Shown one piece after another: positions 10,474-62,135 of a stretch of 64,000 nt of DNA. The notes under the pieces are model-generated. The model was not told where the DNA came from, did no database searches, and worked only from the letters and a program-made list of their open reading frames with translations. The DNA comes from Selaginella moellendorffii (lineage: Eukaryota > Plantae > Lycopodiophyta), in contig NW_003314275.1 in NCBI RefSeq assembly GCF_000143415.4, forward strand, positions 2,337,419 to 2,401,418, given 5' to 3'. A program made the position numbers and the translations under genes. Every line of letters begins with the position of its first letter. Position 1 is the first letter of the stretch.

Positions 10474-10599
10474 TGTTGATGGAGAGTTTCCTTGGATTGA
10501 TCAGCTATCATCGTGTTTGGTACTAATAGTGTATCGAGCTTTAATCCCAAGAACAAGGAAATGGCAGTTGCTACCATCAGCAAACGGAGGTGCCAGCTA

Positions 10600-37642: not shown

Positions 37643-38650
37643 TGTAAGCTATAAATTTTTCTTTTCCAATTTGCCAGCTTACCTCGTCTATCCGACCAAT
37701 ACTACCTTGGATTTTGCTAAGTTCCCTTGCCAAGGTTCCTGCCTATTATACTAGCTCCTATTTGGTCCTACTTGGGTTCAACTACTCACTGCACAAGCAA
37801 CGGAGCGTTAGCTATCTATCCACGGGTTCCCAAATCTTTCCCAATCCCCCTCCCCGGGTTAGACTGGACTTAAGGTTCGGCTACACTCCCCGCAGGCACA
37901 AGCAGCCAAGCACACCAAGCTTCTAGGTTCTTAACATCCCTTGGTACAACAAGACTTCCCTTTACATCCCAAGCCTTGGGTGCAACACTTGCTTCGGGAC
38001 ATCGGGGCGAAACATTAGGTACCTCTACCCCCCCACTTCTATCCTGAAGGGAAGGCCCAAGCCTCTAGGAAGGGTGAGGACTAATGAGCCATAAGGTACT
38101 TAAGTGGGGCACCACTCTATATGAGCCAAGAGCACTATAGTTGGTTCTCCTTTCGGGAGTGGGAGTTGCTCTTGAGAACTTCCTTGGGTGGCCCCTACAG
38201 CACCACCCGAGTCCATGCTCACTCCCACCCAAGGCCCCTTGGCCCCAGTCTCAACCTCAAGTCAGTTTGGAAGCACCACTAGAGAATTCCTTCAAGACTG
38301 GTTCTTGGACCTCACTTGACTTGTATTAGTACTCGGACTCGGTCTTGGACTCGATCTCAGACTCGATCTCGGACCCGATTTCGGACTCAGTCTCAGACTC
38401 GATTTTGGACTCAATCTTGGACCCGATCTCGGACTCGACTTCGGACTCAACCTCGGACTCGATCTCGGACCCGATCTCAGATCTCGGACTCTGTCTCGAA
38501 CTCGGTCTCGAACTTGGTCTCGAACTCGGTCTCAGAGTCGGGTTTGGACTCAATCTCAGACTCAGTCCCATCTGATGAACTCTTTGTCATTTCGGTTATG
38601 CTTTTAGGGATCCTTTAGCCTACGACACCTTGGGGAGTTGGTTCTTTACA
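37643..38650 (-). mobile_element. Probable 3' LTR (~1 kb) of the second chromovirus
   Basis: TGTAA...TTACA termini. A PPT-like GGGTGGTGGAGT lies next to 38650 on the - strand. No second LTR is present for confirmation. Confidence 0.55.
38310..38570. repeat. 12-bp tandem array (ctcggactcgat-like) within the LTR
   Basis: About 20 degenerate units; they produce the SDSI/RSRT periodic pseudo-ORFs. Confidence 0.9.
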
Positions 38651-40925
38651 ACTCCACCACCCATAGAAGAAGTTCGATGCCCACATTGAACATTTTTTTT
38701 TATCCTACAACTTGTTGACCATGTCTCCGGGGGCATCCCCCCACTTAGCAGTGTGCCTAAGTTAGCCTCCCCAACCAAGAGCCCATGACAACGGAATATA
38801 GGTGTCCCTATACCCCTCACCCCACCACGCCCTAGTATGGGGTTGGGACTTGAACCCAACCTTGCTTTACTAGGGGTTTGGGACTTGAACCCAACCTCCG
38901 TAGAATACATTTATGGATTCGACATCCCCATGAGGAGTCGGGTGTAGTTCTCTACGCCTGGTTGACCTAGCTAACCCATACTAATTAGCTTACCTTTGGC
39001 ACACCTTCGAGTCCCAACATATGCCATTGCTCAACTTCACAAATTGATACTTTAATTGAACTTTGCATAAGTACATAGAGTTCTGCCTTGCAGAAATTCC
39101 TCCACTAGATCTCGCGCGTTCGTTAGATTCTCCTCCGGTTCCCATGTTGCTTTGCAGTGTGGAAATCCTTTCCACTTCACATGGAACTCTCTCACATCGC
39201 GTCCTTGTCGCTTGCTTTTGCGCGCATTAAGGATGGCCTCGACTTCGTATTCCTCTTCCCCTTGGATAACCTCAGGTAAAGGTCTTATTTGGTCCTTGTG
39301 AAGCAGATCCTCAAAGTATAGCTTGAGTAAGTTCACGTGGAACACTGGGTGCATCTTCCCCATCTCTCGAGGAAGTCGGAGATGGTAAGCCACTTTACCG
39401 ATTCGTGCCTCAATCTTATAAAGCCCCGCGAACTTGCTTAAGGAACTCAAGATCAATTCATTTACAGGAATATATGCATTTTTACCTTTGGGTCAACTTT
39501 CAGCTAATCCCACTTGGTAGCCTGAGATTCTTGGTGTTCAGCCACACCTTCTCCCCAGCTTGGAACTCTACATCCCGGAGCTTTTGGTTCACGTACTTTG
39601 TTGAGCTCGTTCCAAAGAATCCCTTACTAGATTCCAAATGTTGAGTCTTTTCGCCGTGAATGCCTCCATTGCGGGTAACTCTCCATGATACTTGGCCATG
39701 TCGAGCTCCACAGGACCTTCAATAGCTTACCCATTAATGACTTCCCATGGACTCACCCTGATACTCGAATGTAGTGAGTTGTTATAACACATTTCCGCAA
39801 GTCCTAAATGACTTACCCAATCGGTCTGGTCTCCTGAGACATAACATCGCAAATAATCCTCCAGTTGCCTATTCACTCTTTCCGTTTGTCCGTCTGTCAA
39901 GAAGTGTTAGTGCCACCAAACTTGACTTAATACCCAATACCTATCTGTGGGTGATAGGCTGTGTTGAATTTCAACTTGGTGCGATACTGTTCTAAGAGAG
40001 TTCTCCAGAACCTACTCGTGAAGATCTTATCTCGATCTGAGATAATCTCTTCTGGCCTTCCCCGCACTCGAACCACTTGTTCAAAGAATAGCTTTGCCAC
40101 ACCTTTCGCATCCACTTCCGTTGTGGTGGGTATGAAATGTGCCATCTTTGAAAATCGGTCCACCACCACGAATATCGCATCGAACCCCTCGCTTGGGGGG
40201 AGTCCCATGATGAAGTCCATCGTAAAACATTTCCACGGACAATCTGGAATTGGGATGCTTTGTAACAAGCCCCCACTAGCCTTAGTCATGGCTTTGACCT
40301 GCTGATATGTTGGACATGTCTTTACATAGTCTTGGACGTCCTTAGCCATATCTGGCTAGTGATACTTCCTTTTGAGTAAGCCTATCGTCTTGGGCACTCT
40401 GCCGTGTCCCACAAAAGGTTCGTTCTGACACTCTTCTAAGGCTACCTTCCTTAGTTCCCCTTCTGGATCATACACCCTCGTTTAAGCTCTATTTCGTTAA
40501 AGTGGGAATTGTCATTATCCCACTTGTAAAATAAGGTTTCAAAACCTTTATATAGTATATAAATATAACAAAATTCAACTGCATTGAGGCACATGCCATT
40601 TTATTTTAAACAAAGAAATGTCTACTCAATCACTTCTCCTCCCCTTGCCACTGCTTCACCTCTCTCTTCTCCTTGTCATCGTCGTCCAATTTCTTTCCAT
40701 CCTTTTAATATTGGCTCAGTTGCTCCGAGTCTAGGTGGAGCCCAAGTCCCCATTCAATCTTTACTTTCCCCTTATTAATAAAACAACTTCGTAGACTTCC
40801 AATAACATGCTGTAACACTTCTAGTATAATGCAAATCCTCTCAAAGAATTGTCTTTTAATATTAATACAATGGCATGGAACCCCATGCCATAATAAGTTA
40901 CATTTTTAAATAAATACATGTCATC

Positions 40926-41790
40926 TCAGACTGTTATTTTTTGCCTCCAACGCCTATACAATAATCTTGGAATTTCATCACTCTCCACACTATCAGGATT
41001 TAAACCCAATAGTAATGCCATCTCTTCTCTAATACGTCCACGCTCATGTTCAGTGGTTGAAGAACCCATCCGGTTGAGCAGATTATGGAGATGCGGATAG
41101 TGCTTGGCTAGACAATATACATGCCATAAATGATGACTGGTGTCTGTCCGATCAAATGGCTTCTGATATACCGTTCCATCTGCCATTTGGTTGATTTCTG
41201 CAGCCACCTCCTGGACTGGCCGGTTCTCTATCACCATCGCTCCAAGCCGTTTTGCAAGGTCCCCCAGAACATACGGTTTCTTCTCCCTAGTTTCCATACT
41301 GCAAGAGATGGGGTGCACTGCATATGTGTGCGTGTTCGCTGCAGTTTTAATCGGCGAGTCATCGATGATGAGGATTTCACTTGACCTAGCAGTCCGGTTC
41401 ATCACTACAGCCTCTGGCTTGACGAAGATGGGCTTGCTACCCCTCACATGGACCATAGTCAAGCAATCCTTCTGCGTTAGGAGAAAGTCAAATGGTAATA
41501 TTACTCGCGTCTGATCGTGCATCATCTATAACAACGTTAATGCATTGTGGCGCATCATGGATGTCCAAACTCCCAATTGCAAATTGAACCCGGCCCTCTG
41601 TTTTAAGTGTCGCATGGTCATTATTAGATCCCGCAGTTTCTCCCGTGTGATTAATGTGAATCTGTCTCTTTTGACCAACTTGCGACCGCAGGCTTTGGAG
41701 GGTGCAGTGACATTCGAGGACGAGCCACGCTCATAGGAGAAAAGGACACCGTTCAGATCAAAAATGATATAGTACCTTCGTCGTGACTCT
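40926..41790 (-). CDS. FCP1/NIF-like HAD phosphatase domain (probable last exon of the cargo gene), with an in-frame TAG at 41526-41528
   Basis: HAD motif I-like IIFDLNGVL, motif II-like GVWTSM, TQKDC, and motif IV ILIIDDSPIK. Acceptor tttcatttcag at ~41790. Confidence 0.75.
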
Positions 41791-41869
41791 GAAATGAAAT
41801 GCGTCAATATAAAAAATGGTACAAGTCAATTTTACCATCTACAATATTAGCGAATGGTGCTCCCGATGG

Positions 41870-44400
41870 TCGTTGAGAGGGTTTTGGTCGAGGAAACGTG
41901 AAGGGCGGAAATACTCTCCTCTACAATGTGGGGTCAATCGCATCCGATGGCGTGTGGGCACATGCCATTTCAGCTGTAGACTCTGGTACAACTGGCTCAA
42001 CAGTGGCATGGGGTGGTTCTGATGGCGTGTGATCACACGCCATTTCAGCTGGTGCCTCCGTTGACAAAGTGGACATGACCGAATAGGCAATAGGGGTAGT
42101 GTAGGGAGGTTCCAACGGCGCATAGTCAAACGATTGGGCACACATTGAGTCCGTTGGAAATGAGGATACGACCGGCTCGGCGGCTGGGGCGGCCTCATGC
42201 GGGTCCAATGGCACCTTGTCACCATCAGTTGGATACATGGACAAGATTGACTCAGTGGTATGGGCAGCATCAAGTGGAGCGTGGTCAGCTTGCTTGGCGT
42301 TGATATGGATAGTAGCCTCCACCAGCTCTGATGACTCTTGCAGGCAAGTAGAGTCCACTGGCGGATCCATATGCATGTCCAAATATCTCCCTTCGATTGA
42401 GATGGTATCCTCCCGTGCTACTAAAAACAAACTCATTAGCACATTGAATCGACTATACTGTATTTACCATCAACTGCTATTGAGGAACTAGGACCAATAT
42501 CACTTGGGCGCACTGCTGATTCTAAAGGATTGGACATATGTTTCGACCCTTGCTTGGCACTATCCTTCCTCGACACTAAAGGCTAGAGTTTGTATCTTAA
42601 TTCAACTGAATAATCTCTACTTACCATTTGCTCTGCGACCTACATGGACAATGTTAGAAATGGTAAAAGGTTAGGAATGGATGTACTATTATTTACCTGA
42701 TGGTTTGTCTTGTATGACCTTCCTCCGCTGCTCTTTGGCCACCTCAGGCTGGCCATCGTTGTCATCATCGTCATCGTCATTATTGTGATCGTCACCATTG
42801 TGAGGACCATCCAAGTCCTCTTCGTCCTCCTCTTCATCCTTCTGTTCTTCCTGCTCATTATCTTTCTTTGGCTCCTCATCCCCCTCCTGCATTTCTTCCA
42901 TAGGCTGCTCAGGCTGGATGGCTTGTTCTTCCAGGACCATCTTGGGAAAATCATCTGGCCAAGTCTCCATCTCAAAATACAAGACATCCATAGCCTGTTT
43001 TAGTGCGTGACCTAGGACCGTATCCTCACCCGACTGTCTTAACATGGTTTCTGCACGTTCTTGCACCCTTCGAAGACGACGAGGTGAGAAAAACGTGGCC
43101 CTGACTTGAAAAGCATCCCTCATCCATTGTACCTCTCCATTGAGATTAGGGAAGGGGAGTCCGCCATAGGAATCTGAGTCAGGAGGTGGTGACTGGCTGC
43201 TTTCACTCAGCCCTTGATTTGCAATGAATGGCATGAGCACACACGCCATAACCGCGAGGCATTACCTATCATCTTTTCGTTGCCCTTCTTCCTTTTCGAA
43301 TCAAACGCCTCTAATCCCGACGACTGTTCAACGTGCTTTCGCTTTTTATGACCACTGTCAGTTTGAGCTTGATCTGCAAGAAAAATGGCATGAGGACCCA
43401 CGCAATAACCATGACGCTTTACTTCCCGTCCTTGGAGGCTCTGTCGTGCCTTCCGCATCCTCAGGTGCCTGCTCCTCAATTCCCTTTCTCTTTCGTTTCT
43501 TATGCGCCCGTTCTACAGAAATAGCATGAGGACATACGCGATAATCACACAAATGCTTTTACCCTTCCTCCTCTACCCTAGTCGGTTGTCCATCTCTTTG
43601 TCTACAGCGTCTGAAAGCTATTTTGCAGGTAGCCTAATTCGAGGTTCACGACGTCTCCTTGGCACTTGAACTGTATATTATTGCATCAACACATGCAACA
43701 TCCCATAATATTTTTAAGTTACCTTTCATAAAGTTTTCCATTGGTTCAACTCGTTCCCCTGAAATACAAACTTAGATAAGTGCATGGGGCCATATGTCAT
43801 GATCGTACCTGTTTCGGAACTCTCCTTATCACTCTCCGAGGCCTCCCCCTCCTCCACTGGAGGCACGTTGTTCCGTTCGATTTCCTCGACGCGATCTGCA
43901 AGAACATTAGTTAATTGCGTGGGGCCACACGCCATCAAACCTTCAGGTTCTTGTCGTGAGGTCTGCGCTGCTTGCCCTAGTCTCTTTGGAATTTGAGCTG
44001 CAAGAAGCAATGGCATGAGAATTCACGTATAACAAAAATGATTGGTACCTCTCGTCCGTTGTACTTGGCTAGTGCTTGCCTGTTTTGCCTTTAAAGAAGT
44101 GTCTCCTGCAAGGAATGGCATGAGACCACACGCCATTGCAAATATAATTTGTACCTCCTTTTTTCTTATTGCTTGTCTGTTTGTCCTTCTTCGACGCGCC
44201 ACCAGTGCGCTTTTCAGTCCTCGTGTTTGAATATTCATAACGATCTATAATCAAAATGGCGTGAGGCCTCACGTGACCTTACCTTGTGCAGGTTGTGAGC
44301 TCGGCCCAACATGGGTATCTTCAACAGTAGCTGTTAACGCCGTTTCAGCATCTGGGGGTGACCACGCTCCTGCATACAGAGCTTGTGAGAAACATTTAAA
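41870..44400 (-). CDS. Short exons encoding a low-complexity acidic/Pro-rich linker of the cargo gene
   Basis: A chain of ~50-nt GT-AG introns (e.g. 43374-43422, 43513-43562, 43998-44048, 44106-44154) separates the exons. There is an E/D-rich ORF at 42689-43249 and a P/A/E-rich ORF at 41921-42442. The exact splicing is not resolved. Confidence 0.55.
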
Positions 44401-44401
44401 C

Positions 44402-46935
44402 TTAAAGTGCGTACTCACCAGGTTCGCAGAGAAGATACTGTTTTTCTTTGGCAATTGTAATTATATGCTCCATTGAAGTCACCTCTTCAATGGAGTTTGT
44501 CACCGCAACACACGGGACACCCTTGAGTAGTGCGGCTTGAAAGAATAGTCCGCCGCAGTTGTACTCGACAACGCATTTGCCCTTGGAGTCGGAAGCAGGT
44601 GACCCACCCGCTATTGCATTGAAGACCCAGCTGAGCATTTCCCATGCTGCACCTGGAGCTTTCTCTGGATTCGAAAGCTCCATAGCCGTCTTCAGTTCCT
44701 CAGGCACGGGTAAATTGACCTCCCTCAGATCAATTCGATCGGCCTTGTCGAATGAAGCTGGGAAGTCACTCCAGTCCCACTCTGCTGCAGGACCAATAAC
44801 AAGGGCAAGTGTGAAGATGCGGACATTCGTCAGTATCTTCTTCTTAGCCATTATCCCATGGATCTCCCGCATCTCCTTGCCTTTCAACCGAGCCTTCACC
44901 TCGTTCAAGGCCTTCCAGAACTTGTGATAGGATTCGGAGTCGTAGATCATATAGTAAACTGAAGATTCCACCTCCGCAAGTCCCACCATTAAGTCAATGA
45001 TGGAGCTGACTTCGTCTGCATGAGTGATCTCCTTGTTTGTGAAGTCCATCACACAAAAGATGTTCTTGACCTGCTCATCTCTGCGGGAAACGATGCTCCT
45101 CCACCTTTGATCCTCATCCGAATTCACGTATACCCGGTAAGGTTCTCGATAGGCCTCTGCTATGGGGTCGAGCTGTTTCTGAAGCCGGCGGTCAACATCC
45201 CTCTTAATGAAATTTGGATACTGATCCAACTTCTCAGCTTTACTTTTTGTGGCATCCCGCAGCAGATCGATGAACTTGGGGGCCCCCTTCATGTACTCGT
45301 CGATGTCTTCATTTGACAACTCCAGCTCTTCCATCATCTCTTGCGTGGTGTCGATGCTCACCCTCTCCACGGCCACTTGCTCGAAGATCCAATCCTTCAA
45401 TAGCGCACGAGCTCTCAGAGTCGTGCACAAGTCCTCGTATGTCACAATATGGCCGGGAGTCATTTTGGTCTTGTTGAAGACTACCTCACCACGTAGAAGA
45501 GCATTAGCCATTGTCAGAAGGTCATTGTCGTCTAGAGACCGCGAGAAACGCAAGGCGTTGAGCTTCAAATCATTGGGCTTCCGGCCGTCCTCCACACCCA
45601 TTGAGTTTAGCAACTCCCCGTCATGGTACCTCCTCAGCACATCTACCCATTTGTCAAAAACAACTTTTGTCGCGAGTAGAATGTTATGGATGCTGAGTGT
45701 GTCATTGACCCCTAGTGTTTTCGAGAGAAGACTCGAGAATTCCTGCAATGGAAATGGCGTGAGGCCACATGCTATGCCACATGCAACGAGGCTTACCTGC
45801 CAGGCGCTAGTTGCTAGTGCACGTCCTTGTCCTAGTTTTTGTGGATTCTTCAGTTGAACCCAGAGCTTCCGTGTTCGTGCCAATGTCTCGTGCAGACCCG
45901 ATTTGTAGCACGTTTCTTGCTTGACATTCTGCGCGTGGGAGATGTATATGATAGATTGGAGGGGCGAGTTGCCTTTTATCAGGCGGACAACTCTTGTCTT
46001 GAAGACTTTCTTCACCTCCTCGCCCACCATAATATCCACATCTCTTGCATCGCCAAGCTAGAATGCTGCCCGGAGACGCCATAGAACCGGATGTTCTGAT
46101 CGTCCAACACCTTCCTATTGATCAAGTTTGGAAACCTCGTCTCGCCCTTCATTGTTCGGTAGTAGGGGATCACGTCTGCGATGTCGGGTGTTACTGGACT
46201 TGTCAGCATCTTCTGCTTCAGTTTCTCCACCCACTCATCAGATACTAGCCTGTGGTTGTATTTGCTTTGGATGTCAATGTGGCTCACGTCGATTGTATAT
46301 ACTTTGTTGGAATAGTAACAAGTACTATTATCTGCGACGATTTTTGCTGCCTCTTCTTGCTCTTTCTGCTCTTTGCGGCTCTTCTTTTTGGTGGGTGTAG
46401 TGTTCGAACCCGAGGCAATGGCATCACCGAGTAGCTTCTTTTTTGGAGCAGGAGAGTCGGACGTCAGCTTGAGCTTGACCACCCTTTTCTGCTTCGGGGT
46501 AGTTTCCAGATCGACCCCCTTCCCTTTCGCTTCGCGAACTGGAGTCACTCTCAACGGCTCAATGTTGGAATATAGTTTTTGAACATTGCCGTAGGTGAGG
46601 TCCGTGGATTCCATATGATCTTCATAGACCCGCAGCATCTTTGAAATTGTGGGCCTCCTGGACAACCTCTCCCTAGCTCCCTCTAGGAATTCCTCATAGC
46701 CGCTGCCCCCCTCCGGGAAGCCGCTAGGATGTGCAAGGTGGATCTTGAAGGCGGACGCTGTCTCTACCACAAGTGCCAGTCCATATTCTTGCATGGAATT
46801 GCATGGAGTGTCTGTCATTTGGATGAGGATCCCCATGCATTCTTTTCTCCCACCATCTGTGTTGTACAGCCTTAGATCCTCGCCTTCCATCCCGAAAGTC
46901 CAACTGGTGAGCTCCTCCCCCTTCTCTGCATCCAC
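44402..46935 (-). CDS. Cargo protein core: ParB/Srx-like domain, helical region and degenerate amino-methyltransferase-like region; frameshift near 46040; in-frame 54-nt intron 45743-45796
   Basis: Overlapping ORFs 46012..46935 and 44402..46039. ParB-like pattern IDVSHIDI..NHRLVSDEWVEKLKQKM...FYGVSGQHSSLAM. C-terminal PEK...GKCVVEYNCGGLFFQAALLKGVPCVAV resembles the motif X/I region of beta-class N4/N6 methyltransferases. Confidence 0.6.
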
Positions 46936-47874
46936 ATTGACAGTGGCTGGAAGAAGAATGCAATTCCTCGCCTATTCAGAAATGCACAACAATTAGAGCT
47001 GACAGATGAAAAGCTAGCAGCTGGAAATAACGTGAGGCCACACGCCATTCACCACTGCATCAGATGTCTTGAGGCTGCATCCTAAGATGGCGTGAGGCTA
47101 CACGCCATCTGTAACTAGACTGCACTCGAGAGCCCAATCGGTGCATGCCAATGTTGCTACTAAATGGCATGTGGCCTCATGCCATTTTCTACTTGGCCTA
47201 AAAGACTTACCATTTGAAGCCGAATGGAGGCGTGACAATCAAGGCCGGACTTGCTGGCGAATGTGCACTGTGTGTGCAGCGGATCGTAGCAGCAAGGCTA
47301 CTCTGCCACTTACAGTTGGAGAGTGGCGCTGAAATCTCCCGGGACGCCAAGTGGGCTGCGTGTGGGTGGCGGAGTGGGCGGCGGAGTTGGCGGCAAAGTT
47401 ACAAATTGGGTGTGTCTTGAAGTGGACGCCGATGCACACGAGCGCGATGCGAGCGCGAGTGTGATGCAAGCGCGAGTGGATGCCGATGCACACGAGAAAC
47501 CTGTAGAGAAGGTAGATGAGCGCGAATGTGAGCGTGATCGCGAGTGGGAGCGCGATGCGAGCGTGAGTACGAAGCAAAATGCAAAACCTAACCTCACACG
47601 CGCGAAATGTCACGACGGTTGGTAATCCCGCAACGTCATCATTCCTCGGACTTGGGCGCCACCATTAATTTTTGGATCGCCGCGCGCATGCATGCACATG
47701 AAATCCAAAAGAAATCCGCAACATCATCATTCCTCGGACTGCATGCACGCGAAATCCAAAAGAAAGATCATGATTGGGATATCATTTAATACCCTCGCTA
47801 TATTTATACCATGCATGATTGGATATTCCAAAGCATCTTATATTTCCAAAAATGCCAGACGTTCAGCTAAATAA

Positions 47875-49808
47875 AGAATGGTATACAATGTCCTTCTTGA
47901 TGACCCTGCAAAGAAGCATCTCGATCGGACACCACATGAGACCACACAAGCCTTACAATATTTCAGGGGCATTTGCCATAGATCCGACCATTATTTTGCT
48001 CCAAGATTCTACTGTTTGGTGTGCATTGACCTTTCCATCGACACTGCAAAGGGACATCACAATCAGATGCGGGATCACAAGAAACCAACTTCACTAACTC
48101 TGGTTTCACCAAGATCTACGTAAGGAGTTATGAAATAAAAGGACCCTCTCTATTGAAATGTGTTTATGGTCCTAGGGGCATTGTGACATATCAAAGGATT
48201 TTGCATCAAGTTCTGTATTTGCATGTTTATCAAGCTACTGAATTGCTAAACCCTAAACCCTCCCTAAATATGTGGCAAATGCTGCGTGAAGAAAGATGCC
48301 CTTTCTGGGCAAATGCTGTAAGAGGCAGATGCCGAGCAGTTACACGGCGAATAATCTTGGCACGGATTGCTGACATGGCATGGCAAAGTTCGAATCACTG
48401 ACATGGCACAGCTGGATCGAGGCAAGGACATGATGTGACAAAGTTCAACGTCCGACAGCAAAGTCTAGAAGCTACTCAATTTGAAATTTGTCAAAGGAAT
48501 TATAAGATCTGGTTTATCAGAGGATTTGATGTGACGTTCAAGCGTGTGGGCTCATGCAATTTTGATCCCAAAAAATGCACCAAAAACTGCTCGGCGTCAT
48601 CTGGCGTTATCTCTTGAATGGCGTGGGGCCGCATGCTATTTTAAGGGGCACATAGGAGTATATTCCTAGAATATTCTGACACGCGCGAGATTTTTTTGAG
48701 TTTTCTGGAGATCCAACCGTTAGATCGCAACTAGATTTTACAGAATGGTATACAATGTCTTTCTTGATGACCCTGCAAAGAAGCATCTCGATCGGACACC
48801 ACATGAGACCACACGAGCTTTACAATGTTTCAGGGGAATTTGCCATAGATCCGACCGTTATTTTGCTCCAAGATTTTACAGTTTGGTGTGCATTAACCTT
48901 TCCATCGACACTGCAAAGGGACATCACAATCAGATGCGGGATCACAAGAAACTAACTTCACTAACTCTGGTTTCACCAAGATCTACGTAAGGAGTTATGA
49001 AATGAAAGGACCCTCTCTATTGAAATGTGTTTATGGTCCTAGGGGCATTGTGACATATCAAAGGATTTTGCATCAAGTTCTATATTTGCATGTTTATCAA
49101 GCTACTGAATTGCTGAACCCTAAACCCTAAACATGTGGCAAATGCTGCGTGAAGAAAGATGCCCTTTCTGGGCAAATGCTGTAAGAGGCAGATGCCGAGC
49201 AAATGTATCTCAGGCTAGCGAAGGGGACAAACGAAAGCTAGCTATAAACATGACGGGATGCAAATAGATTACTAGGCTGGTCCTGCGAAAATCAAAAACC
49301 ATAATTGAAAACATTGAAAATGCAAAAAGAAAGGTTTATAATATTTTTGAATTTTAAGCAACCAAAGGAATGTAAGTAGGGCATGTGTTTGTAAGTTTAA
49401 AAATGCCTCAACCACTTAACTTCCCAAGTAAATAAAGCTGTTTTTATTTTTGGTACAGGTAAACTTTATAGCGTGTGGGCTCATGCAATTTTGAACCCAA
49501 AAATGCACCAAAAAATGCTCGACTAGCATTATTCTTTGAATGGCATATGGCCTTATATTGCCATAAATGGACGTACACACACAGCATAATTATTCCTTTA
49601 CACGGCGAATAATCTTGGCGCGGATCGCTGACATGGCATGGCAAAGTTCGAATCACTGACATGGCACAACTGGATCGAGGCAAGGACATGATGTGACAAA
49701 GTTCAACGTCCGATAGCAAAGTCTAGAAGCTACTCAGTTTGAAATTTGTCAGAGGAATCATAAAATCTGGTTTGTTAGAGGATTTGATGTGACGTTCAAG
49801 CGTGTGTT
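47875..49808. repeat. Interleaved internal direct repeats: A 47875-48340 / 48742-49200 and B 48340-48580 / 49598-49808, with telo-box motifs
   Basis: Near-identical copies (duplicate ORFs MVYNV..DDPAKKHLDR and MLSDVELCHIMS). aaccctaaaccct occurs at ~48249 and ~49116. Confidence 0.9.
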
Positions 49809-50316
49809 ATTTTTGAATTCTCGAACTCATTCCTAGGTCTATCATTTTTGTGCGCCGTGTTCTTGGTTCCGCTGAGTGCAGTGAGCGCTGCTTGTGTAAG
49901 CGGCGTTGTGAGCTGTGGTTTATGCGTCTACGAGCGGTTGCAGCATTGCGAGCGCCATTGTGAGCGGTAGTTTATGCGAGTGGCAGTTTGTGCGAGCGGC
50001 GCTACGAGCAGTTGCGGTGGTGCGAGCGGCGCTACGGTACCACTAATGGTATGAGGGCTCATGCCATCTTAGGGCTTGCAAGTTCATCACTAGCATATTG
50101 CCAATAGTTTCTTTACCTGTCTGTAGCTGTGTGTTTATCAAGATGGCATGAGGGCTCATGCCAATTTTGTGAATGCGAAATTTCACGTGGGTGTCAATAG
50201 CATGTTTGAATAATGGCATGTGGCCTCATGCTATTGAGGTTGTTTGGTATGTTATGATTTAGGGCATTCTCCAATCATTTTTTGTATGGTCTTAACTTCT
50301 TTTCTGCACTTTCAGA

Positions 50317-53142
50317 ATGGCCTCCGCAAGTGCGACACATGTTCCCTCTGTGGATCTTAAGAACCGTGCTACATGGATTCAGGCAAAGGTGTTTCTAAAC
50401 AACCCCGAGGGGGAGGTGGTAGCTGAGGGCTTAGCCACAGTTGTCGATCCAAGAGATGCGGTTGTTAATCAAGAATTGGGCTGGGATGATATTGGAGTTG
50501 CGATTTTAGAGGTTATTGACACAGAAGAAAACAGTCTGACTATTGGAAGCATTGTGCGGTGGAAATTGAGGCACTTAGTGTTTGAGAATGTGAAGGATTC
50601 ACAATCAAACACCACTACAACTGATGATAGAACATCTCTTCATGGGAAAAGAAAGTACACCTTCCTAAAGCGCAGCCAAAGGGATTTGAGCAACGAACCG
50701 AAAAGGCAAAAAATGGTGATGGAGGTTCGAATGGTCTCGACAGTTGCTTGTTGCAAGAGGAGGTGCTGTCAACATGCTGATTCGGATGCTATTGAAGAGG
50801 AGAGAGCAAGATACAAGACATTGTCCTGGAAGGCAGCTCGCAATTTTGTGTATGAGGCATTACGGTCATCTGTTGATGCTTCAGAACATCAGGTGGGGGG
50901 CATGGTCTTCCAGAGGGGTTTGGTCTACATGAAGGCATGGAGAATCATTTATGGAGTCCCTCGAACCACATTCTACAGAATCAAAACTGAGTTCGAGGAA
51001 CAAAGGGTTCAACAGGCAGTCCATGGGAACGACGGTACTCACAAAACCAGGGGTCATGTTGTATATGGAGAAGCAATCTTCAAGAGGTTTGTCAAGACAT
51101 GTAGCGAGCAGCAACCACATAAAACCCGCCTCTTGGAAGATGGAACTCGAGACACCCAACGAGTTCTCCCTTCCATGTATACCAAGGGGGCCATATTGGA
51201 AGATGTGAATCGGGAACTCCAGAGTAATGGCTACAGGAAGCTGAGCCAATCTAGATTTAGTAGATTGTGGAGCAACAGGTTCAGGGATGTGAGTATAGGA
51301 AAGTACTCCAGCTTTTCAAAGTGTGACGAGTGCACTGCTATCAAAATGGCTTTGTCGAAGAATTCTTGCATCGCTCAAGAGCGAGAGACGTTGGTTAGAA
51401 GGCGGCTCAACCACAACATCGAGCAGAGAAGCTGCAGGACTGCATATTATCATAACAGGATTCTCTCCATGGAGAGACCTGACTCTTACCTCTGCATCAT
51501 CCACGACAAAATGGACCAGAAAAAGACGTGCTTACCTCGACTCAATCCTGCCCCCAAGGCAATCTCTTCATCCATGCAGCTGCCTGTGTCTCTGTTTGGT
51601 ATAATCGCTCATGGGCATGGTGCCCAGAACTATGGGAACTTCTTTGTACCTCTATGGGGTGGCGGGGGTGCAAACATGATGATTGCGTCCCTAGCAAAAC
51701 ACTTAAGGTCTCTGCAAAGTGCGCAAACTGAGCTGAACGGCCAACCCTTGCATAAGGCCCTTGTCGATCGAACCCCATACAGGGTTCAGCTGGAGGAGGA
51801 GCAAAGGCTTGCAGTATCGTGTGGGGCCTCATGCCATCCCAGTGAATATGTTGGCCGTCAGATTGTAGGGTTATCACGTGAGGCCTCATGCCATTCCGAC
51901 GAGGCTGGTCGCCCGGTGAATGCACAGCCTCATCCAAAAGAAGCAGAATCTCAAGGAAGTTCTTACGGCCGATGTGGCCTTCCACCCCATCTTCTGCTCC
52001 AAACAGACAATGCTGGCAGTGAGAACAAAAACATGTACGTCTTCGCGTACTTGGCGATGCTTGTTGCCAAAGGCATATTTGAAATGGTTACACTTGGCTT
52101 TCTCATGGTTGGGCACACTCATGAAGACGTCGATGCCATGTTCAGTCACCTGGCAGAGTCCCTCCGGCGATCCAATGTCCTCACCCTCCCACAACTCTAC
52201 GATGAATTCCAAAATTGCATCAAAGGCACTGTTGAAGCTGCACTTCTGACAGAGGTTCCAGACTTTAAGGGGTTTGTAAGAGGCTACACCAGGGACGGAT
52301 CCGAAACGCTGATTGGCCACTCCAAGCCTCTTTAGTTTCATTTCAGCATGCGTGACGGTGCTCCAGTGATGAGGTACAAGATGAGAGAATGGGACACAGT
52401 GTGGCTGCCAGTGGACAGCATTGAACTCTTCAAGAGAGATCCCATAACTGGGGAACCTATGATTCCTCAGGGTTCCCCACGGCCGATGCACCCGGATGGA
52501 CTCAAAGACCAGGAAAGTATAGTGGCCGGGATTAGACAGCATATTGCCTTCTGGAAGAGGGGGTTGGTGTTTGGTGGAGAATCCTATTTTCAGAGGTGCA
52601 AGCCTTTGTTCGAATACTGGGAGAAGATTATATCTGCTATCCAAAATGGGCCGGTTGTATATGAAGAATTGGAAGAGTCCTTTTGGCCAGAACCCAGAGC
52701 ACCAGATAGTAGCAGAACAATGTCCTCTAGAAATGCAGTGACAGATAACGATGTTGAGGATCACTATTGTGGGCCGAGGAACAAGAAGCCGGATTTAGCA
52801 TTCAATCCAGTACAGGTCTGCAAAGGAATGGTCGTGCTTGTCAGACCCAGTAATAAAAAACAAATGATATGGGTGGGGCGCTGCATCACTGATGCAGAGG
52901 AGGACGCGGAAACTAACTCCTTCAATGTAACTGTGGAGTGGTTCAAGCCAAGTTCCGGATATACAAAGGATTGCCTAGAAAAGAGATGGGTGCTGAATCC
53001 AAGGGATCCCAACATGAGCATATCGGTGGATAATGTTGTGCATGGTTGGATGCGAAAGCAGAGTGCCACCATCACCTTGCTAGACCATGCAAGAGATGCA
53101 GCAATAGCATTCATAACCCGGGTTCAAGGTGAGATTCATTAA
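50317..53142 (+). CDS. Sola1-like DDD transposase with one in-frame TAG at 52333-52335 (probably inactivated)
   Basis: CCKRRCC and FSKCDEC cysteine motifs. Catalytic-like IIHDKMDQKKT..P, LQTDNAGSENKN and FLMVGHTHEDVDAMFS. ORFs 50317..52335 and 52348..53142 are in the same frame. Confidence 0.85.
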
Positions 53143-56100
53143 TATTCCTTTACTAAGTTTCTAATGTATTTTATTTCAAGGTAAACAATCCGAATCTGAA
53201 TCAGAGGAGGCGTGATGGCATGTGGCCTTACGCCATTCCTAGGTGAGATGATACAAATAACAAATATAAATTCTTAGTTGTTCTAGCAAATCTTACTTAA
53301 AGTTCAAGGTGAACAAGCCGAATATGAATTCATCGGATTGTTATAACAAATTGCGAGGTGATGGCATGAGGCGATACGCCATTTGAGAGTGGTAGCCATT
53401 CCTATATGAGGTGAGTGAAATATTTATTAGAAATACCTCATTCAATTGTGCACTTCTAAGTCTTGGTCCACTCAGTACTGTTTGCATGTTTCTATTTTAA
53501 TTCTTTCTCTAAAATGTTATTTAGCATGTGGCTTCATGCCATTGCTCTCCACAATCATGCATTGAATTTTTCTATCCTTGCATAATACTTCTCCATATAT
53601 ATAGCATGTGCGCACATGTGATATGGTTTATTAGGCTTGATATAGTGTGTAAGGTAAAACAAAGATGATGTGACATATGCATTTACCAATCACACGTGCA
53701 TAAATCTAATAATATGGTGTGTGGCCCATATTAATGGTACATAAACCCATATTGTGGGCTTACGTGCTTTATGTACCATCATTCCCTTGCAGCGTGTGTG
53801 TTGGTTTCCTTTTACAACACAATGAACTCCATATTTTAGGGTGAAGAGCGTTCTCATGGCAAGCACAAAATCTGTAAGTGAGGCAAAAAAGGAGACGGAG
53901 AAGGAGATAGGTGAAGATGTAGAATATATAAGTCTTCCAAACTCCCTATACTATACTCCAGGTGATCATTTTTCTGAACAAATGGCAACATTAACAACTA
54001 TCGAGAACGCCCTAGTAACGTCAGAGACAACAATCCAAAGCAAAACAACTGACCCGGAGAAGGATGATAGTACCGCTAAGAGTACCAAAAATGAGGTGTC
54101 CACTAGCGCTTAGGCTTATAAAGGCGTGTGCCCTCATGCCATTTACTTGATCACCAAATACCTTTTTCCCTTTGCACTAGTATATCTTAATACCGGTCTG
54201 AGAAATAGAATGGCATGTGCCCTCAGGCCTTTTACTAAATCACCTTTGAAAGAAATGCAAGCTTCTATGTCGTAAAAAAAAGGCACTAGAGAAATTCCTT
54301 AATAATATGAATGTTATTTAGTTTCATGAAAATACACTAAGGGTCAAATGAGTTAAATGACTTCTCCAGACTAGCAATGCCTCTTGCTACACCTTCACAA
54401 TTAGATTCGTTAGAAAAAGATAACATTAAATAATATCTAAATGTTCTCACCATTAAGTTATATGTCTGGCTAATAGGAATGACGTTCATCTTGGAAAGCT
54501 CACCACACGCTCAATGAACAAACAAATAGTGTGTGCGCGCATGCCATCGCTCTTCTTTAGCTTCAGATTCGGCTTGTTCACCTTGACAATGAGATTTATT
54601 ATACAACCAGATGGACTCAGTCTGGACACAAAGTCACCGCGCTAGTCACCATGCCCCAGATATGTCTAGCCCCTAGACAAAAAACATATAATTTCACGTC
54701 ATTTTCAAATACTTGAAAATTTGTACCTAGTCCCATTTTACTGAATAAATCCCACTTTAACGAAATAGAGCTTGTTTGCTTGTAATAGATGAATCTATTA
54801 CGTTCCGCATAGCCCGTTTTCTCTTCCGTTGGCAGCTCACCTCTCTGGTGAGCTTCCCGTGCCTCTAGATTCCTCAGCAACACTTCTTGTGCTAGACCGT
54901 CGCTTTCATATGCCATCCGCACATCATCCCAAAAGGTTGCTGTCGTGTTAGATATCCCTAACTTCAAGCTTGATTTTCAACTTAGCACATTCGCCACGAT
55001 GTTGCTCTTCCCAGGCTTGTACAAAATCTCGCAATCAAACTTGGCCAAAGCATTTGCCCACCAACCCTGTTTCCCTCTCAAGTCGGGCTGTAACAAAAAG
55101 TGTTTTGTCGCCACATTGTCTATGTAAATCTTGAAGTGTCTCCCAAGGTAGTGTCACCACTCCTTGAGTGCCTTGACCACCGCAAACAATTCCTTCTCGT
55201 GGGCAGGCCACTTCCGTTAAGCCTTGTCCAACTTCTTTGAAAAGAATGTTACTGGATGGTTGTCTTGCTTCAAAACTGCACCCAACACAAAGTCCAAAGC
55301 ATCTATTTCTACCTCAAAGTCCTTACTAAAGTCTAGTAACGCCAACATGGGAGCCTTCCTCAACTTCCCTTTGAGGTGGACAAATGCCACCTTGCATTCT
55401 GCTGTCCATACCATCTTCCCTTTTCCTGTTTGGTCCGTTAAGGGTAGGGCTACTTTCAAATAGTGTCTCATAAACTTTTGGTAGTAGTTGCATAACCCCA
55501 AGAATGCGCTTAACTCGTGTACATTCGATGGTCGCTCCCAATCCTGGATCGCTTGAACTTTCTCAGGGTCCACTTTGAGCCTGTCCTTGCCCACCACATG
55601 CCTGAGAAACTTTACCTCTTGTTGAGCAAAGTCACATTTGCTCTCTTTAGCATTTGCTCTCTTCCCTTAGTTTCTCAAACACCTTTGTCAAGTGTTCAGC
55701 ATGCTCCTTTAGCATTTCGCTATAGATCAGGATGTCATCAACATAGACGACCACAAAGTGATCCAGATAGGGTACAAAGATGTGGTTCATCAATGCCGAA
55801 AACGTTGCCAGCACATTGTATAGCCCAAAGGGCATCACCAAAAACTCAAAGCTCTCATACCTTGTTCGACAAGTTGTCTTCTCGACATCTTCCTATGCTA
55901 CTCTGATTTGGTAGTATCCTGACCTTAGGTCAATCCTCGAGAAGTATTTTGCCTTTCCCAACTTATCGAACAGGTCTTTAATCCTTGGCAAAGGGTACTT
56001 GTTCTTCTTTGTATAGTTGTTGAGCAACCGGTAGTCTATGCACATGCGCATAGATCCATTTTTCTTTTTCACAAATAACACCGGCGCCCTATATGACGAC

Positions 56101-56487: not shown

Positions 56488-59400
56488 AATGGCACAACAT
56501 TGACAATTTTTAACCTTAATAATCAATATTTATAAATTGAATTAAGTTTAGTTATAATTTATATTGCTTAACTTCCTTTTGTGTTTCCTTTTCATCATTT
56601 TCTTGTAATCAAACTCTATTGAGATTGATTTTTTATCATAAATGATGCAAGGGGATTGCCATTAGCAATAACCTTATCTCAATTATAGTTATTACATGGA
56701 TTTACAAGATCATGTTTTTTATATCAAAACTGATAAATAAGTATATATATTTTTAAAAAGGATGCAAACAAGAAGTATATTACAAAATTTAGAAAATATT
56801 GTTGTTCTTCATGTTACCATCATTTTATATTAAACTAAAAATTTAACTTATAATTTTTTAAAATAATATAAATCTAAAGTATTTTATTACTTTCATTTTG
56901 AATAAATATATTTAAAAATTTTAAATTTTCTTTTATCATCTACATATCAGAAATATTTCGAAATAAATATTTAGATAAATATGTAAAAGGTTGGATGCTT
57001 GACGGTAGATTAGCATCAATCCTACTCAACACCTGATACTTAAGCTCAAGATGGCAAAACTTAAAAAACAATTTACAGATAAGAGATGACTTTATCACTA
57101 TTTTATGCTTTAGTGAAATTTCCTGCAATCTTTGCAACTTAGGTTCAACTTAAATTTCAGCAGATTGACCTAGGTCATGGATTGCATGCCTCTCCTGGGG
57201 ACTCTTGCTCTTCATTACAAATGTAGTTCTTCAACCACAAAAAACCTGAGCGATTCTCCAGGTTTGTTGTAAAACCACCTGAATTCTATGTTCTCTTCCT
57301 TGGCAGTGCTGGAGTTATTCCACTGCATATCCAGCCGACACGAAGCTATCTCGACCTGGAGCACATCTCCATGGCGGTTCCCTTCATGACCTATGCACTA
57401 ACATCATCCAAAGAATGTCTACCCTCTTATAACACTCTCCCGTACGTTTCGTATTTGGCGACTGACTGGGGAAAGCACGTCCCACGTGCGCAGATACTAA
57501 GAGATTCAGTGTTGATGGAGTGCACTCTCAAGGGGCGAATGAGTCTCAATCCCAAGTGATTGGAGGTCCAAAGTCAAAGATTCTGAGGTAGCATCGATGT
57601 TCAAGCTCCGAGGCAATGGTATGAAAGAAAGACAATAAGCACAGAAAGGCATCACACAAATTTCCCCGTGTCTCATCCATCCTTGAAGCAGCCCGTCATA
57701 GGCAGTCGATTGACAAGCCGAAAGGACCAAGCGACTTGGCCAACTGTCGACGAGAACCAACCGCCATGAAACTTTCCAACGCCAGAGAGACCAAGCGCTT
57801 TGGCCATCCCCAGTGAAAGATTGTTAACGACAGGCCACAACTAGACGAACGAGACCACGGAACAAGAAAACATAGAAAGCAGTTCAAATGTAACAGTTAT
57901 GACAGAAAGCAAGGAAATGCAGATTAACATTCTCAGCGATTTGAGACAAAGAATGCACCTCAGAACTGTGACGATCGGAAACCTCAAGAGACAGGGGAGA
58001 GAGAAGCATTACGTACCACAGGATCGTGCCCCTCAACAAGCTGTCTCCGCATCGCGAATGGGACAGAACTTATCCCAGGAGACAGTGTCCTGCTCCCGAA
58101 TCAGGTTCGGGCCTGTGAGTAACAAAATAGTTCTCGCAAAGACACTCACAGCATTAAAAGAATAGAAACGAAACGTGAACTGTACCAGTCAAAAGAAATA
58201 CCGTTTGAGATGAACTCCATTGATTGGCTTCAGTGGTTTCCTGCCCCTCAACTCTGCTAGCCAATACGAATTAGTGCCAGCACGAGAAAGTACCTGATAA
58301 GGACCAATCCAAGAAGGCTGGAACTTGGCAAAGTGATGCACAGCCGTATCAAGTCGCCACACAGGACGAATTTACGAATATAAGACTTAAACTGCCGCAG
58401 CGGTTCTGGTGGTTGTTGTCCAATGAGATCAAGCTCGTCCTTGCTCTCCAGAACTTCAAACCTCGTCACAAAAAGTTTGGTCAGTGAGTCGAGAAGTCAA
58501 GAAAGAAAGACCTAACACTTTCCTTTCATCAATGTGTCCAGGGATGATAGCCACTGTGTGCGCATCCAAATCTCTCAAATTCTGCCCAAGCACTGCTGTC
58601 CCAGCCATCGTTTTGGGTTTTCTCAGTCCAGGACATCACACCCTCCCCCCAGGGACATCCTGGATGCATGCGAAGCAGAATTTCCTCTCTTCCTACCAAG
58701 AAGGACACGACCCCAAATCACGAACGATCCCCACATCATAACCCATACCTCCCAACCTTGAGCTCGTTCCCGGCGGTAGCAGAAAAGCGACCAGGTGATG
58801 CGCCAAATGCCTCATTTCTTGAAAATGGGGTACAAAAGGAATGCCTACCCTAAACTCTTTCTCTCTCTAGTCCAGATCACCCCGTACACTCCTTCGTACG
58901 TTCTAGAAAGCCAACCAGTCCATAGTTGTGGGAACACTGCGGTTTAGCTGGTACCTCCGTTTGCTGATGGTAGCAACTGCCATTTCCTACGCTGTTCTTG
59001 GGAGAAAAGCTCGATACACTATTAGTACCACTCAATGGAATGAACACGATGATAGCTGATCAATCCAAGGAAACTCTGCATCAACATCAGTTCGAATTAT
59101 AGTTAGCAAAGAGATAGCGGATTATGTCAAGAGACTCTGCCATTTGTATGCCGGTGTTGGGATCAACCAGATATGGAACCTGTTCTTGACAATGATAATG
59201 AAGGGAAAAATAGATCAAAAGGTTACCTGTGTTGAACCCGAAATTTGCTTGAGCTTGGAGCAATTAAGTGACCCTTTGCCCGTGTTCCAGAGGATGTAAG
59301 GAAGTTCCAGCTCGCACAGGGCTTCTCTTACGAGCCTTGCAAACTACCAAAAAACTTTTAGAATTCTTTGAAAACACAGCGCTTTACCTGGTTGTTCTCG

Positions 59401-60165
59401 TATGAGTAGAGCTCAAGGAGATTCTGTGGAGGATCTGGCAATGCTCCATTCCACAGTGACATGCCTCGCCCTGCTCGTATTATCGTCGGAACCCAGCCAG
59501 TGACTAAAGGTGCTGGAACACACTATGATGAAATACCGAAGAGTTTACACTTCAGTAAAACTTGTTACCTTTCTAAAATCCCGAATGTTGGCCTTCTTCT
59601 CTCACCATATTCCTGGAACAAGTAGTTGACAATATCGGCTGCCAGAGGCATTCATGCAAGCTGATTGTGATGAAAAGAAAAATTACTCACAGCTCTCGTA
59701 CATTGACACGCCGGTGTTTGGATCCAAGAGAAATGGAAACCTGTCATATTCGATGAGAATCTGTTGCAGACAAGAGTGTATCACTTACTGCTCTTTGCCT
59801 CCAGACGCTTTCACAAACGCACGATGGACTCGAGATCCTTTTGGGCACAGATACAACTACACAAAGATTGAAAAAGTTTCCATCTGCAACTTCCACGAGA
59901 CACTACCTCGGCAGAAAGATCGAGCTCTGTCAATGCTTCTCTCACTCGTCTACAGAAGGGACAGGCCTCTATATACAAAAAAGAAAAATCAACAAACTGC
60001 AATACGAGAGTTTAAGCTTACCGAATTCATAGAGCTTGAAGAGCTCAAGTTGAAGGTACGATCTGTGTTTTGACGTTCTCTCCCAAGGCGGCCTTGCCAA
60101 GCTTCCAATTCCCCAAGACAGAAGATGTTTGATGGCAGAAAAAAAAGATAATTACATACCCATAT
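56488..60165 (-). pseudogene. Duplicate 3 (inverted) of the GST-N locus and downstream region (copy of ~9277-13115)
   Basis: Reverse-complement near-identity to copy 1. It shares the 5' deletions of copy 2. Confidence 0.93.
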
Positions 60166-60169
60166 ACCT

Positions 60170-62135
60170 GTTTTTGATAGTAGCAGAGACACTGGGCTCT
60201 TTCCTTGCACATGGAGGGGATATAAAAGGCCTGGTGCTGCCCTCTGAACAACTACAACTCCTGGGAACTCAAGTCATGACACAAGAGGTGTAGGATGGGG
60301 CATTTGCAGATGATACTGCACTTTTCCTGCTCGCCACCCCAGGGAACCTGGACGCAGCAAGGTCCAAGCTCGAGAACTTCAACATGGCAGCGGGAGTAGT
60401 TATAAACTGGAACAAGTCAGTAGGAGTGAACTGGGGAAAGCTAGGCATCGAGGCTTGGGGACAAGAGATAAGATATCACTGGCGAAGACACTTGGTACCT
60501 CGGCATCTAGGTTGGGGTCTAGTACAGTGTGGCCACACAGGACGATACGCTGCTCAGGAGGATCTGGACTGCAGTTCAAAAATGGACACTGAGGAAACTC
60601 AGGCTCCTAGCTTGGATCATAGTAGTCAAGGGCATGATCCTCCCTAGCATCTGGTACCACCTTTTGATTTGGCCGGTGCTGGAAACTACATTGCAGAAGG
60701 TGTGACAGATGGTGTGAACCTACATATGGCGTGGAGCATTAGTTACAAGGCGAACCATGGCCAAGGTGGCATGGCAGTCTACAGCGAGGCCGTGCATCCT
60801 AGGAGGGCTCAGGATCATTGACCCCAGCGACATGGCGAAGGTGTTGAGGTACAAGATTTTTCTTATAGGACTACAACAGGGGAGACAGCCATAGCGACTC
60901 ATGCTCTGGCAGAGCCTCCTAGTGATACACCCCAAACATAATGCAGCCAAACCCTGGGAGGAGGACCCACAGTGGCTCTTCGTAAAAGGACCGACTCAAG
61001 TAGTGAAAAGGGGCAACTTCATCCAGAGCCTTCACCGATTGTGGAAAGCCTTTCTGCTGGAGCAAGTACTACCGACTAGGGCTGAGGAGTGGCTTAACCA
61101 GTCTCTGTTTTTCAATGCACTGTTCAAAGTGGGAGGTGTGACACTGGGACGAGAGACTCACCACACAATCTGGAGAAAAATGCATGCAAACGGCTTTTGG
61201 ACTATGAAACAACTGGCGGGAGTGATCGACAGGGATTGGTGGTGAACAGCAAGAAGGACTCAAGTTTTTGGACCTTGGAAGCAACGCAACATCCTGCTGG
61301 ACGTTCTACGACTCCTCCGGGTGGTGAACGACACGAAAGCAAGGACGAAGTGGCTGAGAAGATGCCTTAAAGCAGGGGACTTTGTGGCGATTCAACAGCA
61401 AACAGAGTGGGAGGAGCACGATGCAGTGCGACATCCGCTGGGGAAGTGGACTCGATCATTCACTACACCTACACCAGCATGGGAAGAAGGGGATGTCGAG
61501 GTGTGGTTCGTCACTGCACTAGAGCACAACATAGGATGGCCTTTTTGCGTCGCAAGAGGAGATATGCTCCTCCCAACGGGTGAGAGACAAATGATGCCGA
61601 ACGTCACGGACGATGAGGTATGTGGGAGGATTCGTGTGCTTAGGCAGTCACACAAGAGGCTGGACGTGGTGGAATCGGAAGACCTACTAGAGGGCGATGG
61701 ACCATTGATATGGTGGCAACAACAGCTGCTTGAAGATCTAGACTAGGACCCTGCCACATGGTGACGAGGGATGGGAAGCTTTTTCTCCTATGCAGTCAAG
61801 GAAGTGCGGAATGGACTACTGACATCGTGGGAGGAGGCAAGAGAGGAGATTCCAAAGCTATGGCAAAAGTGAATAGCACAGGGGGTTGACACGGAGCAAG
61901 TGGTGGACAACACGATTCACTTCTAGAAGCTGCCCGTGTAGGAAAAAGTGAAAGTCACCTCCTGGTTAGTAGCGAACAACGGTCTCCCGGTTGGACAGCA
62001 ATTCCAAGATGACGCGAGTCGCACGTGCAGGGAGTGTGGTGAAATTGAGATAGTCAAGCATGTGCTGTGGGAGTGTGACACTACAAAGGAGGTGTGGCGC
62101 CAGATCATTAAGGTAGGGAAAGAGTTGGGCATTAT
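60170..62135 (+). mobile_element. Decayed non-LTR retrotransposon (L1/Tx1-like) RT C-terminus and zf-RVT
   Basis: AFADDTALFL...INWNKS (RT catalytic FADD), GGLRIIDP and the zinc knuckle CRECGEIEIVKHVLWEC. Many stops. Confidence 0.85.

Follow-up and report, generated by a model that had tools for sequence, protein, structure and literature searches.

A sequence word that is repeated throughout one transposon and is missing from the DNA around it raises the question of what reads it. Such a case was analyzed in a 64-kb stretch of Selaginella moellendorffii DNA (contig NW_003314275.1, positions 2,337,419 to 2,401,418), referred to below as the window, with all coordinates counted from its first letter. 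The element concerned is a 14,290-bp Sola-like transposon (40484–54773) with two divergent genes, one for a transposase and one predicted accessory gene, and the word is a 22-bp palindrome present in 31 copies. As a family-specific palindrome scattered over non-coding DNA, this word is best read as the target of a dimer that the element itself probably encodes, be it the accessory protein or the transposase. The accessory protein is tentatively favored here.

The Repeated Palindrome

A consensus search of the whole window allowing up to three mismatches returned 29 matches, compared with 0.72 expected, and 28 of them lay inside the element. When a symmetric profile was applied (above 9 bits), 31 sites were found in the element and none in the remaining 49,710 bp of the window. 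A preliminary description had reported about 30 dispersed copies confined to the transposon, and this was upheld: all 28 sites listed there were real. Two starts that had been given approximately proved to lie one base away, at 51816 and 51873, three further sites were added (40578, 43779, and 48539), and the array begins at 40578 instead of 40870. The palindrome is a confirmed feature of the element.

The consensus of the 31 copies is ATGGCRTG-WGSSCW-CAYGCCAT (22 bp, 40578–54547, no strand assigned). The copies start at 40578, 40870, 41947, 42022, 43228, 43385, 43521, 43779, 43914, 44010, 44115, 44256, 45754, 47027, 47087, 47164, 48539, 48618, 49468, 50046, 50143, 50213, 51816, 51873, 53215, 53361, 53521, 53601, 54121, 54210, and 54526, and two weaker matches below this main set were noted at 48798 and 49540.

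The unit is a nearly full palindrome carrying about 26 bits. The fixed 8-6-8 geometry proposed earlier was evident from the inverted half-site pairs, of which 28 were separated by a gap of 6 and 10 by a gap of 11, compared with 0–4 at every other gap between 0 and 15. The spacer had been taken as free to vary (N6), which proved incorrect: it is conserved as WGSSCW, and its positions 10 and 13 carry approximately 1.55 bits each. Information fell to about zero one base beyond the 22-mer, indicating that the word is maintained as the flanking sequence diverges.

As to placement, 27 of the 31 palindromes were located outside modelled coding DNA, though coding DNA makes up 57% of the element (P 4e-7). 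The four coding copies form two pairs in variable linkers, one of them (51816 and 51873) inside the linker of the transposase at 51697–51979. The largest distance between neighboring palindromes was 1,603 bp; for 31 uniformly random sites, such a low maximum would be unremarkable (P 0.4). The two largest gaps are each filled by one of the two coding pairs (post hoc P 0.006). No palindrome was found in the terminal 90 bp of the element, and comparison with the element ends confirmed that the word is unrelated to the terminal inverted repeats (TIRs).

Nature of the Signal

Within arm positions 1–8, 40 one-sided changes and no compensatory change were counted over the 31 copies. Variation at R is independent of that at Y (Fisher p = 0.72). 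At both W positions W is conserved, yet they pair in just 9 of the 31 copies. Such a pattern is as expected of a protein site. This check on compensatory substitutions agrees with the initial proposal that the palindrome would be bound by a dimeric DNA-binding protein rather than folded as an RNA hairpin.

Flank similarity was detected for 7 of the 31 sites: of 930 pair comparisons, 4 exceeded the 99.9th percentile of the null. The earlier view that the copies are non-tandem and their flanks non-homologous was overstated for these seven and holds for the other 24, whose flanks are unrelated. Simple duplication is insufficient, as had been argued: local duplication likely makes some new palindromes and leaves the set as a whole unexplained. 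Target duplications around individual copies were not found beyond chance at any of the 31 sites, which largely rules out independent micro-insertion for most copies. Fixed copy ends at splice sites, which were looked for as a mark of miniature inverted-repeat transposable elements or introners, were not seen.

None of the 47 differences listed relative to other family copies fell in motif bases (220 of 2,017 bases, 10 motifs covered), and the probability of such sparing was P 0.004, or P 0.04 allowing for cytosine context. The CG and TG forms of the palindrome are both family traits. CpG decay private to the window copy was considered as the source of the R/Y positions and rejected, since in these 10 motifs no difference from the other copies is listed. 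Equal use of the CG and TG forms would suit a reader that tolerates methyl-CG.

Palindromes in Related Loci

By transposase homology, 29 related loci were gathered, and 27 of them were searched de novo for repeated palindromes, with L014 and L023 omitted as near-duplicates. Palindrome arrays were found in 11 of the 27 loci, with scores of 136–514, whereas no score above 94 was obtained in 35 shuffles. Nine pieces taken from the window outside the element gave just 12-bp tandem repeats or noise.

The eleven arrays reduce to three words, all unlike that of the window: TTTGGCCATATGGCCAAA in L001 (13 copies), AAGGCTCAAAC-N4-GTTTGAGCCTT in L002 (6 copies), and, in a decayed group of more remote relatives, a word centred on GTGGCCAC (5–24 copies, some of them in tandem at a period of about 47 bp). 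None of the 29 loci contains the window consensus exactly. A word private to each family points to an element-encoded reader. Changes in the words of four relatives were again mostly one-sided (60), and only one of the 5 two-sided changes was compensatory.

No array above the shuffles was found in 14 of the 27 loci, mostly contigs of 1.5–4.5 kb filled by the transposase, with L026 reaching 7.4 kb. The search result in L027 was a plain tandem repeat, and the top match in L008 was an unrelated tandem repeat. A 57-bp tandem array with two G+C-rich palindromes per unit was observed downstream of the related transposase in L027 (3938–4360). L008 (2483–3118) and L010 (3282–3928) share a coding-like fragment 5–7 kb upstream of the transposase, which may represent a further accessory gene.

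In the L001 transposase, the N-terminal domain gave a Transposase_23 (TNP1/EN/SPM) match with E 6.8e-4 that narrowly missed the curated cut-off, and no such match was obtained for three other N-terminal segments of this kind, including that of the window. One or two copies of a small, weakly Transposase_23-like domain were observed at L001:1974–2213 and in the N-termini of the transposases P0005–P0008, which suggests that a domain of the CACTA TnpA type was fused to the Sola-like transposase in these cases.

The Element and Its Transposase

The element is bounded by perfect 24-bp TIRs at 40484–40507 (plus strand) and 54750–54773 (minus strand), flanked by the 4-bp target site duplication GTTT at 40480–40483 and 54774–54777. 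Excising the element together with one GTTT copy restores an open integrase frame in the interrupted Ty3/gypsy element, which carries a chromodomain. Another word, AARTGGGA, is present in four copies, always within 45 bp of the element ends (40500, 40518 in inverted orientation, 54731, and 54750), and is thus located where transposase sites are usually expected.

The transposase gene (50317–53142, plus strand) encodes a DDD enzyme with a DUF7869 match (E 1.5e-38) and is interrupted by a premature stop at 52333. Its three acidic motifs, HDKMD (51502), TDNAG (52003), and HEDVDAMF (52120), are conserved in five homologs, and the protein is 35–45% identical to five proteins in public data. We take DUF7869 to be a mark of Sola transposases. 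The DDD enzyme and the 4-bp duplication fit the Sola superfamily, a placement set by published criteria.

Sola elements have a DDD transposase, a 4-bp target duplication, TIRs of 11–1124 bp, and a usual length of 2–9 kb, and they are rare in flowering plants (PMC10741241). The window element shares the transposase type and the duplication, and its 24-bp TIRs fall within this range. In contrast, its length of 14.3 kb exceeds the usual one, and the passage on Sola in that source names no accessory gene or internal motif. Neither a dispersed palindrome nor such an accessory gene was found described in the literature on Sola elements outside subscription papers, Repbase Reports, and preprint supplements.

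The window copy is dead, owing to the premature stop in the transposase and to a frameshift and stops in the accessory gene. The family is abundant: 59,154 contigs from one DNA run map to the stretch, and more than half of its words occur in 16 very small assemblies. A 696-bp segment with five palindromes (43368–44063) is missing from most family copies, as determined from read depth and the joint 43367–44064. Depth over this block was 4.7 compared with 72–75 in run X4, and 7.6 compared with about 100 in run X10. Since most copies are without the block, 26 palindromes is the common number, and site-bearing exon–intron modules come and go. The short form is joined at a 4-base microhomology and, in our reading, keeps the frame.

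The two genes are separated by a divergent promoter and leader region (47214–50316), in which six palindromes and internal duplications were found. Duplications of 200–300 bp or more with 95–96% identity were observed here at 47872–48548 and 48739–49806. A 40-nt stretch in the accessory-gene leader (47277–47316) matched abundant RNA reads whose two flanks continue into unrelated sequence, and these read flanks are presumably the 3' end of large-subunit rRNA. The element may therefore carry a captured rRNA hairpin at 47277–47316, where Rfam raised no flag.

The Accessory Gene

The predicted multi-exon accessory gene (40926–47213, minus strand) was modelled from GT-AG boundaries and frame continuity. 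It is divergent from the transposase gene and broken by a frameshift near 46040 and several stops. From 46039 to 42697, predicted GT-AG introns, almost all of phase 1, link twelve predicted exons that keep a single frame. Only two stops occur in these exons, both where other copies read differently, and one splice acceptor decayed in the window copy is intact in other copies.

Palindromes were present in 10 of the 13 introns listed for this gene: the first predicted intron (46972–47210) has three, and nine introns of 38–54 nt have one each. Among the latter is an in-frame predicted intron of 54 nt (45743–45796) with palindrome 45754. A low-complexity linker (43219–44418) consists of short exons and predicted phase-1 introns of 38–52 nt, and 8 of its 10 introns carry one palindrome.

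The N-terminal region (46036–46380), which ends in SGQHS (46074) and continues past the frameshift, gave ParB-like leads, all weak (Atlas DUF3723 0.90, DUF6551 0.89, and ParB_N 0.87; PHROG ParB-like E 0.22). The following exon (44419–45742) is predicted to encode a helical domain of about 190 aa and then an N6/N4 DNA-methyltransferase-like domain. The helical domain was modelled confidently from six sequences (pLDDT 68–92), compared with a pLDDT of 36 when the accessory protein was folded from a single sequence. The methyltransferase-like lead came from Atlas (0.87, with 10 of the 10 best matches being PF01555); the model reached a pLDDT below 50 there, and Pfam gave no match. The catalytic motif of N6/N4 DNA methyltransferases is [DNS]PP[YF]; the candidate place reads CVMDF, and the motif is also missing in three homologs.

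The last exon (40926–41789) encodes a putative NIF/FCP1 (HAD) phosphatase-like domain, recognized through homolog P0023, in which PF03031 was matched at E 5.8e-17. The similarity of the exon to the NIF part of P0023 was weak (pairwise E 0.002, E 0.18 in another comparison), and no direct Pfam match was obtained. The NIF/FCP1 motif is DxDx[TV], and its place reads DLNG in both the window exon and P0023. In this distant homolog, the helical domain of the window gene and a clear NIF domain occur in one protein, which supports a single accessory gene in the window. As far as can be read from the sequence, the motifs of all three enzyme families appear altered in the accessory product.

A full-scan homolog search with the accessory protein gave six matches, and a word-indexed database search gave no homolog. 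P0020 was tried as a homolog and dropped as spurious, being a repeat protein. Scans of the accessory exons against PDB, NCBIfam, and PHROG returned nothing above noise, and the Pfam scan returned no family above the cut-off.

Surroundings of the Element

Elsewhere in the window, a host gene with short introns is present in three copies, one of them inverted (approximately 9570–12250, 26625–29213, and 57250–59994; 95–100% identical), and by eye it resembles a protein of the thioredoxin/glutathione-transferase type. Tandem repeats of 12 bp with a consensus near GGACTCRATCTC adjoin the gypsy element at 38307–38573 and 25117–25318. Fragments labelled by eye as a decayed LINE-like reverse transcriptase lie at approximately 60300–62200.

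Proposed Function and Alternatives

The palindromes are proposed, with somewhat less than even confidence, as candidate sites for a dimeric protein from the element's second gene, which would serve self-recognition and probably act against silencing. The accessory protein, with a weak prediction of ParB likeness at its front end, would bind the palindromes as a dimer and would thereby let the element recognize and mark its own copies. If the protein loads at a palindrome and acts about 1 kb to each side, this could account for the absence of any gap above 1.6 kb. The methyltransferase-like and phosphatase-like domains, with their altered motifs, may serve to bind DNA or chromatin or as decoys rather than as enzymes. 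The outcome would be loss of repressive methylation and transcription of both divergent genes, while the transposase would use the separate word AARTGGGA at the ends.

The anti-silencing outcome is probable by analogy with the VANC proteins of Arabidopsis VANDAL transposons. Reading by an element-encoded protein is suggested by the non-coding bias, which resembles that of VANC21 sites, located in the non-coding DNA of VANDAL21 (PMC5735166). The accessory gene is suggested as the source of this protein by its ParB- and methyltransferase-like leads, both weak, by the occurrence of AARTGGGA, a word apart from the palindrome, at the ends alone, and by the precedents of VirB and the red-algal Plavaka elements described below.

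Several results weigh against the accessory protein as reader, the main one being that no accessory gene was detectable in the relatives. A homolog was found in none of the 29 loci, including four of 15–22 kb with arrays; these copies are decayed, and the profile was built from six sequences. The leads behind the ParB call are sub-threshold, and neither Pfam nor PDB gave a match for the region. The CTP-binding arginine patch of ParB has the consensus GxxRxxA; the matching place in the window protein reads SGQHSSLA, and the arginine patch is absent. In ParB proteins a helix-turn-helix domain for site recognition follows the N-terminal domain; the helical domain of the window protein gave no clear match to a known DNA-binding or other fold in a search with the six-sequence model (best Z 4.8). 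No reads fell on exons of either gene in two RNA runs, of which about 12% each was searched, and the introns therefore remain predictions. The window copy differs from other copies mainly by C-to-T changes (CG 12/184, CHG 15/173, CHH 8/526), which agree with a plant host and indicate that it was methylated at some time. Finally, one source describes transposases that are sequence-specific activators on their own (10.64898/2026.08.24.746577).

This known activity, the arrays in relatives chosen by transposase homology alone and showing no detectable accessory gene, and the near-threshold Transposase_23-like domain in L001 favor the transposase as reader. It would act through a domain other than the one gripping the ends, either condensing the element for end pairing or activating its own copies in the manner of Spm TnpA and AtMu1. 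We regard this as a serious possibility that is nevertheless rather unlikely. The palindrome is unlike the TIR and missing from the element termini, where a separate word is found instead, and known transposase and TnpA sites cluster at termini (10.64898/2026.08.24.746577), whereas the window palindromes run through both genes.

A host transcription factor might also bind the word, the element having gathered sites for tissue expression. The palindromes flank both promoters, and parts of the word may resemble plant NAC and TCP sites. However, a 22-bp word of 26 bits is long for a host factor, related families each have a different word, and no copy occurs in the other 49.7 kb of the window, host genes included. 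This explanation is considered improbable.

It is very doubtful that the palindrome is an RNA hairpin aiding the splicing of introns as short as these, or that it was left behind by an element that creates introns. The nine short predicted introns with one copy each, located 8–20 nt from the acceptor, would agree with such a role, as would the folding of some copies at −10 to −14 kcal/mol. Against it stand the lack of compensatory changes, mismatches without strand preference, and an Rfam scan with no match worth keeping. In addition, 19 copies lie outside the mapped introns of the accessory gene, 3 of its 13 listed introns have no copy, and distances to splice sites vary (5–21 nt and, from the acceptor, 8–20 nt).

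That the copies are independent micro-insertions or mere by-products of local duplication, as the seven shared flanks, the 696-bp block with five sites in a minority of copies, and the partly tandem related array with its period of about 47 bp might suggest, is highly improbable and largely refuted for most copies by the lack of target duplications beyond chance, the 24 unrelated flanks, and the drop in information outside the 22-mer, with local duplication being the likely origin of new sites.

Comparison with Known Systems

In layout, the system resembles VANDAL21/VANC21 and VANDAL6/VANC6 in Arabidopsis. Both systems combine a TIR transposon, an accessory gene, and a family-specific word that occupies intron, intergenic, and terminal non-coding DNA and differs between families (PMC5735166, PMC10398659). 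The differences are considerable. VANDAL elements have a Mutator transposase and asymmetric tandem words of 8–9 bp, with no mention of palindromes in PMC5735166, whereas the window element has a Sola-like one (DUF7869, 4-bp duplication) and a 22-bp palindrome in mostly single copies. The exons scanned of the window accessory protein gave no Pfam family shared with a known protein and offer ParB-, methyltransferase-, and NIF-like leads instead. The window system is VANC/VANDAL-like in layout and not a member, given its other transposase and its palindromic, mostly non-tandem sites.

Spm TnpA and AtMu1 likewise have family-specific motif clusters and an element-encoded reader, and a Transposase_23-like domain occurs in at least one relative's transposase; in contrast, their sites and effect are confined to termini (10.64898/2026.08.24.746577).

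In the red alga Bostrychia, Plavaka (EnSpm) elements carry ParB-like and N6-methylase accessory genes, PAG2/PAG3, beside inverted-repeat arrays (10.1101/2025.02.11.637652). Shared with the window element are the giant DNA transposon, the ParB- and N6-methylase-like accessory domains, the inverted repeats, and the proposed binding and modification of the element's own sequence. In Plavaka, however, the repeats are tandem and next to PAG3, and the domains belong to separate genes with SET and 2OG-oxygenase partners (10.1101/2025.02.11.637652); in the window, sites occur along the full length of the element, and one gene is predicted to be ParB-methyltransferase-NIF-like. The hosts also differ, a red alga in one case and a land plant with a Sola-like transposase in the other, and binding is only proposed in both. 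By analogy of its parts, the window element appears closest to Plavaka PAG2/PAG3.

Bacterial parS sites are palindromic loading sites, several per replicon. VirB, a relative of ParB, is a bacterial anti-silencer (PMC10653881), so that the likeness extends from palindromic sites, several per element, to a ParB-family protein able to offset silencing. It is limited by the weak ParB homology of the window protein and by its arginine patch, which was not seen; in addition, no ParA-like gene was noticed in the element. A bolder proposal, which we consider unlikely, is that land-plant Sola-like transposons carry a ParB/parS-like self-recognition system, in which a ParB-derived protein, fused to domains resembling a DNA methyltransferase and a CTD phosphatase, loads at private palindromes no more than 1.6 kb apart, spreads, and rewrites or shields chromatin. 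Introns and protein linkers would, in this proposal, be built around the palindromes.

Significance

Escape of transposons from host methylation has been shown for very few elements, namely VANDAL, Spm, and AtMu1, all in flowering plants. The window element is a clean test case in another superfamily and plant lineage, with a single long site rich in information and a candidate reader that the element itself encodes, and the related families with different words are built-in specificity controls. Through it, the proposal on the red-algal ParB-like accessory genes also becomes testable. If the ParB/parS-like reading were true, it would, together with red-algal PAG3, point to a mobile anti-silencing cassette common to several transposon superfamilies and would provide a source of programmable readers of 18–26-bp sites. 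Given the abundance of the family in host sequencing runs, the system may have helped it to spread.

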